From the IMG/VR virus record IMGVR_UViG_2721755646_000010: a DNA stretch of 64,000 nucleotides. The stretch is one strand, 5' to 3'. This stretch comes from a virus. Taxonomy: Duplodnaviria; Heunggongvirae; Uroviricota; Caudoviricetes. Each line of letters begins with the position of its first letter. Position 1 is the first letter of the stretch. The position numbers were made by a program. Below are positions 48,001 through 51,000 of the stretch, in pieces.

Positions 48001-51000
48001 AGCTGTGCATCGTGCATATGGTGCGCAACAGCCTGCGGTTCGTTTCCTGGAAGGACTACAAAGCCGTCACCCGCGACCTGAAAGCCATCTACCAGGCCCC
48101 CACAGAAGAAGCAGGCCAGCAGGCGCTGGAAGCGTTCGCCAGCGCCTGGGACAGTCGCTACCCGCAGATAAGCCGGAGCTGGCAGGCAAACTGGACCAAC
48201 CTGGCGATGTTCTTCGCTTACCCGGCAGATATCCGCAAAGTCATCTACACAACCAACGCCATCGAGTCGCTGAACAGCGTAATCCGGCATGCCATCAAAA
48301 AACGCAAGGTGTTCCCGACGGATGACTCAGTGAAAAAGGTCGTGTGGCTGGCAATCCAGGCGGCTTCACAGAAATGGACGATGCCACTGCGGGACTGGCG
48401 TATGGCAATGAGCCGCTTTATTATCGAGTTCGGTGACCGCCTGGACGGTCACTTCTGAGAAAAGGCATTTACACAGAATCGTGTACAGGGTCGATTTTAC
48501 TCGTTAATTAGCGAACAAACCACTCGTCAGCAGACTCCCAGGTATCTTTCAGCGTCTCCTGAACAAAAGTTTTTGCAGAATCTTTATCGGCGGTGCGAGT
48601 AACTGAAAGGCCATCGTTGCTGGTGGATTTGATGATCACTTCTACATCGTCATAACGTTTACTGACACGTCGCAGCATTTCTTGTTGCAGGGCAGGAACA
48701 GAACCTTTTGGCATTTTGTTGATTTTGGCTGCGGGGTATCTGTGGGGCATATATGGGACATAAAAAGGCCTCAAATAAACAGCAAAATCGAGATTAGGGA
48801 TTTTTAGAAAAAATACAACCATCTGAAAAAACTTAGAAAACACCCAAAAACCCACAGAATAGTAAAAAACATCTATGAATTATGGATTTCAAGAGTCATT
48901 CAATCTAACTAATTGATAAATAAAAAATTAACTTTTCATCGCTTCGTTATGGGGCATGGTTGGGGCAAACTCGCTTAACTGTGTATTTAACAGCGTTACC
49001 TGCGCATTATTATTTTCTGACATCCATTTCCCGTACACCTGAAACACCATTTGCGCATCTGCATGGCCCATCTGGTTTGCAATGAATGCCGGGTTAGCTC
49101 CTGCTGTTAACGACCAGCAGGCATAAGTGTGTCTCGACTGATACGATTTGCGATGGCGGATTCCGGCACGCTTTACCGCTGCGTCCCACATCTGCCTTAT
49201 TGAGTCAACGGTAAAATGGTCGCCATAATTTTTTACTTTCGCTGACACTTCAGGTTGAAAAACAAAGGTACATTTTTGTTTCTCTGTTCTGCCGAATTCT
49301 CTGAGGTGAACATCGATGATATGCTCTTTGCTCAGTCTCGTTAGTGCCATCTGACTCCGGAGAGCGTCGATTGCGGGCTTAATAAGGTGAATCACACGAT
49401 TGGTTCCCGCCTGTGTTTTTGGTACTGTAAAACGGTCTTTTGCCAGATTTCTTCTGATTATCATTCTGCCATTGCGCAAGATGGTTGCGGTTTTTCTTCA
49501 TCATTTTCTTCTTCTGTTTCCTGCTTAGCAGACAGTTCGCGGTTAACTTCTTCCAGGATATCTTTTTCCGGTGTATGTCGTGCAGCAGTGAGAGTTTCCT
49601 TGCTGGGGTTCTCGTGATCAGTCTCCGTTAAGTAGGCGTTGATATACCCCTGAAGGCGTCCCGGGTAGTGATAAAACTCAGGGTGAGCGCTCCGGATAAG
49701 TGCAAAAATAGCGGCGCGGGAATAGTCCAGAATACCCGGGGTTGCGCGAAGTGCTGCGGACCATTCTTTGAACGGACTTTCTCTTTTCAGGACGATTTCT
49801 TTTGCGCGACGATAAACGCTGCCCGGAATTTCATAAATATTAAAATCCATCGGAAGTGTGGCTGCTGCAATCTCCACATCCAGCGTATCGAAGGTGTGTA
49901 CTAAATTCGGATTGCGATCGGTTTTGTTCCCGCCACCGGCATTTGCACCGGAAGCCGTACGGGTGATACGCGAAACACGATTTCCTTTCATCCACTCTTT
50001 TGTCAGCAGACCCCGATCAGTGTAGTCAGCGTCCAGGTATGCCTCGAAAAAAGCAGTTATCAGTCCCAGGTCTGAATTACCGGGATTAGGGAAAACTTTG
50101 TCAGTGTCGCGTACCAGTTTGTGAAGGTCGCGAATCTCCAGCGGGTCGAGCAGCTTTGTTTTGTGAGAAATGGCCAGGGCAGTAACAGCCGGCAGTTCTT
50201 CCGCCCGTGCTATATGTAATGCCTGAAGTTCTTCCCGTGCAACGTGCGTTACTGGTTTTTCGCTGCCGTGTTGCGCAAGCCAGCGAATGGGCAGCTCCTG
50301 ACCAGAAACCGGCAGGAGCATATTCTCCTCAATCTCCGTCATGTCTTCGCCGTTGACGTTGGTATTGTCAGTACTGGCTGGTTTCTCCTGCACGGAGGGA
50401 GAGGGCGCGATAAATACCATTGTAATGCCATCTTCCCCGCCTTTTTCGTATCGGTTGCAGAATTCGGTATCAAACACGCCTTCAGGTGGAAGGTCATTCA
50501 CAACGGGTAAATGGACGCGAACGGGTTTTTTAAAGTCGTCTTCATCATAATCGTTGTCATCCATTGCGGTAATGCAGCGGGAGATGGCAACAGATAATTT
50601 TTTTGCTGTAGTCCAGTAAAAACCACCTTTAATTCCCAGACGTTTTCTGACTTTGTCATTTTTTGCTTCGCAATATAGCGCAAATTCTTCTTTATCAGTG
50701 CTCATTGATAAACCTCATTACAGATTTAAGGGTGAACAAATCCCTGCCATTGCTGGCATTTTTAATCCGTTGGTATGGTGTTAATATGGCTGGAGGGTTA
50801 TCCAGCCGGTGTTTCGTTATTCAGGTACAGCGATACTTTTTTTACCGGGAGGCATTCACCAGAAATTTTTTGCTCGTCTCTTGCCTGGAGGCAGGATTCT
50901 TTACTGGCATAAATTCCGGTAATCACATTCTGTGATTCACCCGTTATAAGAAAAACCGTCATCATCAGTGCAAATGCTGAAGTCATTGACGTTCTCCGAA

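Follow-up and report, generated by a model that had tools for sequence, protein, structure and literature searches.

The 64,000-nucleotide stretch of tailed-phage DNA analysed here (IMG/VR record IMGVR_UViG_2721755646_000010; hereafter the window) holds a second prophage, prophage 2, that opens with a shortened integrase frame, which raises the questions of whether this end was formed by a genuine deletion, how such a deletion arose, and whether the prophage can still leave the chromosome. In the ORF list, two frames on the minus strand meet there as described in the initial annotation, an integrase frame of 183 codons (48928-49479) and an exonuclease frame of 414 codons (49461-50705), which overlap by 19 bp (49461-49479). 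The initial annotation read the overlap as a deletion joint fusing a 5′-truncated integrase to a recE fragment, in a prophage unable to excise by its own integrase and fixed in tandem beside prophage 1.

The DNA search returned 100% identity to E. coli O157:H7 chromosomes for the 2.5 kb around the joint. A 121-bp query crossing the joint matched strain Sakai at 100%, at a location described by the terms "prophage Sp11, lambda-like phage", "exonuclease", "pseudogene" and "integrase", and window positions 43062-58900 showed 99.99% identity to strain TW14359. The joint between the integrase and exonuclease remnants and the flanking early-left genes are the same as in Sp11. Prophage 2 of the window is Sp11 of E. 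coli O157:H7, seen at its int-proximal (left) end, with DNA-level identity to annotated genomes as the deciding evidence. The feature table of Sakai lists ECs_2217 as an integrase pseudogene and ECs_2216 as an exonuclease pseudogene, and PGAP describes the corresponding genes of TW14359 as an integrase "missing N-terminus" and a "RecE family exodeoxyribonuclease" "missing C-terminus". The deletion scar is real, but it was already annotated and its consequence has been tested in experiment; in this sense it is already known.

The border between the two prophages was defined by a four-way alignment of the window junction, attL of the prophage of O145:H28 strain RM13514, attR of Sp11 in Sakai, and the right end of a Stx2a phage. 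The core TTATGGATTTC (48880-48890) of a Qin/ydfJ-type attachment site was the only sequence common to all four. On the left side of this core, the window follows the phage side of Sakai Sp11 attR (the dinI arm), and to the right it follows the phage side of RM13514 attL (the int arm). The junction consists of a P arm, the common core and a P′ arm, and is attP-like; judged from the alignment, such a P-O-P′ arrangement is the hallmark of tandem integration of two phages at a single attB, which bears out the proposed tandem placement beside the neighbouring prophage. The Sp12-Sp11 boundary of Sakai maps to window position 48889/48890. This attB is located within the 5′ portion of ydfJ, which is annotated in Sakai as a pseudogene abutting Sp11.

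The start of prophage 2 was initially set at 48508 and has to be moved, as Sp11 starts at the att core and the former coordinate takes in a dinI-like gene of the neighbour. This gene (48508-48750, minus strand; Pfam DinI, E 3.6e-17) lies within a frame at 48508-48855 in which Pfam finds the DinI-like domain, and it corresponds to ECs_2218, which Sakai assigns to Sp12; Sp11's own dinI-like copy is found at its far end (ECs_2153 in Sakai). The dinI-like gene, the P arm and the att core together form the Sp12-type right arm of the neighbour (48493-48893), which showed 99.75% identity over 401 bp to the right end of Sp11 in Sakai (L009 4708-4308) and 99% identity to the right ends of Stx2a phages. 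As these 401 bp recur at its right end, Sp11 lies between direct repeats. The right arm of the neighbour also contains an IS cluster (44800-48492), in which an IS256-family element, ISEic2, is split by the IS66-family element ISEc8 (repeat_region in Sakai, PGAP in TW14359, Transposase_mut in Pfam); this cluster is not part of the deletion joint.

The clean undeleted reference for annotating the locus was the prophage of O121:H19 strain 16-9255 (accession no. NZ_CP022407.1, ~958-969 kb), which has intact int, xis (DUF1233) and exonuclease genes in the same order. It is identical to the window in the 3′ part of the integrase gene (538/538) and matches it at 99.9% over 3.5 kb spanning the 5′ part of the exonuclease gene and the early-left region. 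Several of its early-region proteins, namely DicB, the DUF1482 protein, the truncated LexA-family repressor, Cro and P, have accession numbers in common with Sp11 of TW14359. It differs in keeping the 431-aa integrase, the DUF1233 excisionase and the 820-aa exonuclease, and in having IS600 between xis and the exonuclease gene, where O157 lacks it. The same integrase protein is encoded by the prophage of RM13514, in which the intact 431-aa integrase adjoins rspB; this prophage has no nucleotide similarity to the exonuclease fragment and was usable for the integrase side only. The phages 640R1 and PhiR42_1 placed the joint within ~10 bp, but at 89-92% identity they were too distant for an assessment of microhomology.

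Base-by-base comparison with the O121:H19 prophage placed the joint at 49465/49466, with integrase DNA running through 49465 and exonuclease DNA starting from 49465. The exact overlap of the two parental sequences is 1 nt (T), located within an in-register 9-bp patch in which they agree at 7 of 9 positions (T-T-CCATT). Neither an IS end nor an att-like sequence is present at the joint. The segment missing relative to the O121:H19 prophage is 3579 bp long (L010 1421-4999) and includes the 1263-bp IS600 specific to that strain, so that the net deletion is ~2.3 kb, an approximate size because the reference is a close relative and not the actual ancestor. By this comparison, the missing sequence comprises integrase codons 1-253, the whole excisionase gene, and exonuclease codons ~414-820. 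With both parental segments readable in the O121:H19 prophage and the joint mapped to the base, the deletion joint proposed initially is genuine.

The integrase-derived sequence proper starts with Met254 of the parent protein, at 49465. The TTG at 49479 is a "start" in the mechanical ORF sense only and lies inside exonuclease-derived DNA. Read from the sequence, the stop codon of the exonuclease frame (TGA, 49463-49461) overlaps the ATG of Met254 (49464-49462) in a minus-strand ATGA (49461-49464). As a shift of 1 nt separates the two frames, no fusion protein is made, and the word "fusing" in the initial annotation applies to the DNA and not to the protein.

The integrase remnant (48928-49465, minus strand) comprises codons 254-431 and the stop codon of a 431-codon Qin-type tyrosine integrase, and all of its 538 nt agree with the intact integrase genes in O121:H19 16-9255 and in O145:H28 RM13514. 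The frame covers profile positions 52-165 of the 172 in Pfam Phage_integrase (E 5.4e-09), and in protein alignment it showed 98% identity to residues 249-431 of the intact 431-aa integrase. In the intact protein, the arm-binding domain (Arm-DNA-bind_2) occupies residues 9-71, the SAM-like core-binding domain residues 85-190, and the catalytic domain residues 206-397. The remnant, beginning at residue 254, has neither the N-terminal arm-DNA-binding domain nor the core-binding domain, and its catalytic set is incomplete: the Arg-I residue R235, in the motif TGIRPGEL that aligns with TGLRISEL of the solved Tn1549 integrase (6EMY), lies upstream of the joint and is lost, and PKTQAG (Lys), SRHT (Arg-II, HxxR box), MGHAD (His) and QVYGKW (Tyr) are kept. 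In tblastn, neither the N-terminus of the Qin-type integrase (residues 1-248) nor a DUF1233-type excisionase had a match anywhere in the window. Pfam, alignment and tblastn thus agree with the earlier description, in which only the catalytic half of the integrase is left and Xis and the N-terminal half are missing. In four of five O157 genomes sampled, this integrase type was present as a single copy at ≥80% DNA identity, so a closely related helper integrase is usually lacking. Alignment to the integrase of prophage 1 (1-1131) had been suggested as a check, but that protein is unrelated to the Qin-type integrase (BLASTP E 3.5, not significant) and its arm-binding domain belongs to a different family, which made it unusable as a comparator.

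The exonuclease remnant (49461-50705, minus strand) encodes the first ~413-414 of the parent's 820 residues followed by Glu and by a stop codon that arose at the joint, and showed 99% identity to residues 1-415 of the O121 exonuclease. The match to the N-terminal part of RecE reported for this 414-codon frame was reproduced: residues 57-189 hit Pfam Exonuc_VIII (PF06630, E 1.6e-34), and the product showed 57% identity to residues 50-397 of Rac RecE, the non-catalytic N-terminal part of that protein. The other end of the parent is of a different kind. The intact 820-aa O121 protein carries an Rv2179c-like DEDD 3′-5′ exonuclease domain at residues 639-810, its 813-aa relative in 640R1 also ends in an Rv2179c-like DEDD domain, and the 823-aa proteins of RM13514 and of prophage 1 in the window have the same DEDD end behind N-terminal parts of a different type. 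The C-terminal PD-(D/E)XK 5′-3′ nuclease domain of RecE (DUF3799, PF12684) was found neither in the fragment nor in the intact 813-823-aa relatives, which have a DEDD domain (Rv2179c-like/RNase_T) instead. Within the window, the C-terminus of the parent exonuclease matched only the prophage 1 gene at 1428-2474 in tblastn, and neither residues 601-866 of RecE (the nuclease domain) nor Rac RecT, as an adjacent annealase, had a match. The annotations of 640R1, PhiR42_1, RM13514, O121 16-9255 and Sakai Sp9 show no gene for an annealase in the interval from the exonuclease gene to xis. The reported absence of the RecE nuclease domain and of an annealase is literally true, but it is not a loss by deletion, as the intact relatives never had either; in particular, the missing annealase is not a result of the deletion because no intact relative carries such a gene at this place. 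The domain that the deletion removed is a DEDD-type 3′-5′ exonuclease, not the PD-(D/E)XK nuclease of RecE. The label "RecE family" is misleading here, the parent being a RecE-like N-terminal region joined to a DEDD 3′-5′ exonuclease that has no annealase partner.

These data point to one internal deletion of ~2.3 kb at the int end of Sp11, probably produced by illegitimate recombination, in a prophage that would have no self-excision and that stands in tandem after an Sp12-type arm; we give this reading a probability of roughly 0.93. The lambdoid prophage Sp11 is integrated in ydfJ at the Qin-type site, directly after the Sp12-type right arm. In this reading, a single intra-prophage deletion brought codon 254 of the integrase gene up against about codon 413 of the exonuclease gene upstream, and took with it the arm-binding and core-binding domains, Arg235, the excisionase gene and the DEDD exonuclease domain. 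The 1 nt of exact homology within a patch agreeing at 7/9 positions fits illegitimate recombination, for example replication slippage or microhomology-mediated end joining, better than a site-specific, IS-mediated or homologous event, although exact microhomology of one nucleotide gives little support to any one pathway.

Illegitimate recombination between two resident prophages, one donating the 3′ part of the integrase gene and the other the 5′ part of the exonuclease gene, as in an earlier tandem array, could also have produced the joint. O157 carries many near-identical lambdoid prophages, the locus itself is a tandem array, and the neighbouring Sp12 of TW14359 has the complementary N-terminal piece (~230 aa) of the same integrase type. 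However, a single O121:H19 prophage contains both segments in the right order and orientation at 100% and 99.9% identity, so that an internal deletion suffices, and the Sp12 integrase remnant stops around residue 230, where another deletion has joined it to rspA; an exchange between two prophages is very unlikely. Less probable still is an adjacent deletion mediated by an IS element that once lay between xis and the exonuclease gene. IS600 occupies exactly this place in the O121:H19 relative, IS629/IS1203 is abundant in O157 and in some strains sits within the 2.5-kb stretch around the joint, but the joint itself contains no IS sequence or IS end, IS-adjacent deletions normally keep the element, and both break points lie within coding sequence, with the parental sequences readable to the same base. 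An O157 intermediate with an IS between these break points at 49465/49466 is not seen either.

An artefact of sequencing or assembly, with a full-length integrase frame in reality, has a negligible probability, and nothing was found in its favour. A correction near 49479 that would reveal a complete integrase frame had been considered in the initial annotation, but the DNA upstream of 49465 is not integrase DNA: positions 49465-53000 consist of exonuclease and early-region DNA with 99.9% identity to the O121:H19 prophage over 3539 bp. The same joint was found in 224 of 5,426 complete E. coli genomes, 223 of them with 100% identity over the 121 bp and one with 95%, and it is therefore not a sequencing error; these genomes were assembled independently, and Sakai and TW14359 both have the two genes annotated as pseudogenes. 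The internal deletion is the preferred explanation of the joint.

As neither a working integrase nor an excisionase is made, Sp11 cannot excise by its own site-specific system. In the published analysis of the Sakai prophages, Sp11 was scored as having a defective integrase, no excisionase and a defective recombination function, and no excision was predicted (PMC2669165), and neither circularization nor replication nor packaging of Sp11 was observed (Asadulghani et al. 2009, PMC2669165); these non-excision data are from strain Sakai and not from the strain of the window. The claim that prophage 2 cannot excise by its own integrase is supported by the destruction of the integrase and excisionase genes and by the lack of Sp11 circularization in Sakai (PMC2669165). 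Of the description "fixed in tandem", the tandem part stands, but the prophage is fixed only in a relative sense, since the 401-bp direct repeats flank Sp11 and homologous recombination between them could still delete it or loop it out. The joint documents to the base why Sp11 cannot excise, in agreement with the published predictions and experiments. Beyond such bookkeeping its significance is small, and it represents ordinary prophage decay.

The neighbour, prophage 1, is itself composite. Window positions 1-36909 correspond to Sp9 of Sakai, which sits at ompW (99-99.9% identity), and positions 42370-48889 to the right arm of Sakai Sp12 (99.7-99.96% identity). Sp9 and Sp12 lie 0.4 Mb apart in opposite orientations in Sakai and are contiguous in strain 319 as in the window, an inversion of ~0.42 Mb relative to Sakai. 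From these matches, prophage 1 is read as an Sp9/Sp12 inversion hybrid whose left end is of Sp9 type and whose right junction is of Qin type. As the two ends of the hybrid come from different att systems, its intact integrase and excisionase face mismatched att sites, a useful point for annotation. In the literature on O157 chromosomal inversions, no paper describing this particular inversion was found, and a long-read study of O157 touches on Sp11 and Sp12 only briefly. In TW14359, the Sp12 integrase is of the same Qin type and retains its first ~230 residues only, joined to the start of rspA; this independent deletion took out rspA, rspB, attL and the 3′ end of the integrase gene.

Some residual activity of the remnants can be imagined. 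Translational coupling at the ATGA on a transcript from pL could yield a C-terminal integrase fragment of 178 aa without Arg-I that hinders Qin-type integrases of incoming phages targeting ydfJ; we consider this highly improbable. If it were true, the predicted 178-aa fragment might bind core sites or integrase protomers. The 414-codon RecE-like N-terminal ORF is itself intact, and the conservation of the ORFs is accounted for by O157:H7 being a recent clone.

Among the known systems, Sp11 of Sakai is the closest, with the same joint (100% over the 121-bp query) and the same neighbours, namely the right arm of Sp12 with its dinI-like gene towards one end and, towards the opposite end, the exonuclease remnant and dicB. 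The published description of Sakai Sp11, with a defective ExoVIII-type function and a lambda-type helicase loader (PMC2669165), fits the Sp11 of the window. The Sakai locus differs by an additional IS629 within the dinI-like gene (window positions 48607-48610) and in its neighbour, which is a complete Sp12 at ynfA in Sakai, whereas the left 37 kb of the neighbour in the window are Sp9. Qin of K-12 resembles Sp11 in its integrase, as the remnant showed 91% DNA identity to a K-12 tyrosine recombinase/integrase gene at ~1.65 Mb, a position we take to be that of intQ, and also in the att core in the 5′ part of ydfJ, which Qin interrupts in K-12, and in an early-left region of the dicB/ydfD type; it is nevertheless a separate prophage with other cargo. 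Rac RecE shares with the Sp11 exonuclease the common Exonuc_VIII region (57% identity to residues 50-397), the N-terminal region of RecE that is dispensable for RecET recombineering. It differs in its catalytic PD-(D/E)XK fold (DUF3799, residues 615-850) and in having recT immediately downstream, whereas the parent of the Sp11 exonuclease has a DEDD domain and no recT neighbour.

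Across positions 1-36909, the window matched Sp9 of the reference O157:H7 genome Sakai, which is integrated at ompW, at 99-99.9%, and positions 42370-48889 matched the right arm of Sakai Sp12 at 99.7-99.96%. The tail tip/fibre region at 36.9-42.4 kb showed no close match to Sakai Sp9 or Sp12. On the basis of these matches, prophage 1 (window 1-48889) is a hybrid of Sp9 and Sp12, which implies an inversion of approximately 0.42 Mb between Sp9 and Sp12 relative to Sakai; strain 319 shows the same arrangement. As a consequence, the Sp9 integrase and excisionase, both intact, face an attL of the ompW type on one side and a right junction of the Qin type on the other.

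Sp11 is flanked by a 401-bp direct repeat (window 48493-48893 and, at the Sakai Sp11 right end, L009 4308-4708; 99.75% identical) containing the dinI-like gene, the P arm, and the att core. RecA-dependent recombination between the two copies would offer an integrase-free route to Sp11 loss. Between nleG7 and the dinI-like gene, the window carries an ISEic2 (IS256 family) interrupted by an ISEc8 (IS66 family) insertion (44800-48492). A further IS629/IS1203 is present in Sakai, and in several other strains, at the position of window 48607-48610, within the dinI-like gene region. The right end of the Stx2a-converting phage JNE122398 record (L008 4115-4330) was identical to Sp11 attR, including the ydfJ-side flank; the ydfJ att site and the dinI arm are therefore common to Sp11 and these Stx2a phages.

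In strain TW14359, outside the window, only about the first 230 residues of the Qin-type Sp12 integrase are left (L004 47101-48450), and the start of rspA directly abuts this remnant; rspA, rspB, attL, and the 3′ half of the Sp12 integrase gene were lost in a separate deletion. Thus, in the canonical O157 arrangement, tandem Sp12 and Sp11 carry complementary halves of one integrase type. At the Sp11 deletion joint, the exonuclease remnant ends in a stop codon that overlaps the integrase Met254 codon, the two forming an ATGA created by the deletion (window 49461-49464); this overlap could, in principle, allow coupled translation of the 178-aa integrase C-terminal fragment.

Genes for 813-823 aa proteins of the lambdoid "exonuclease VIII/RecE family" were located at window 1422-3893, in the O121:H19 16-9255 prophage (L010 3781-6243), and in further intact relatives (L002 4761-7202 and L005 8690-11161), and no recT neighbour was present at these four loci. 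Two N-terminal types occurred among these proteins: a RecE-like type matching Pfam Exonuc_VIII, and a second without an Exonuc_VIII match, approximately 33% identical to the RecE-like type over about 145 residues. Whereas RecE has a PD-(D/E)XK domain, the 813-823 aa lambdoid proteins lack it and carry a C-terminal Rv2179c-like DEDD 3′-5′ exonuclease domain.
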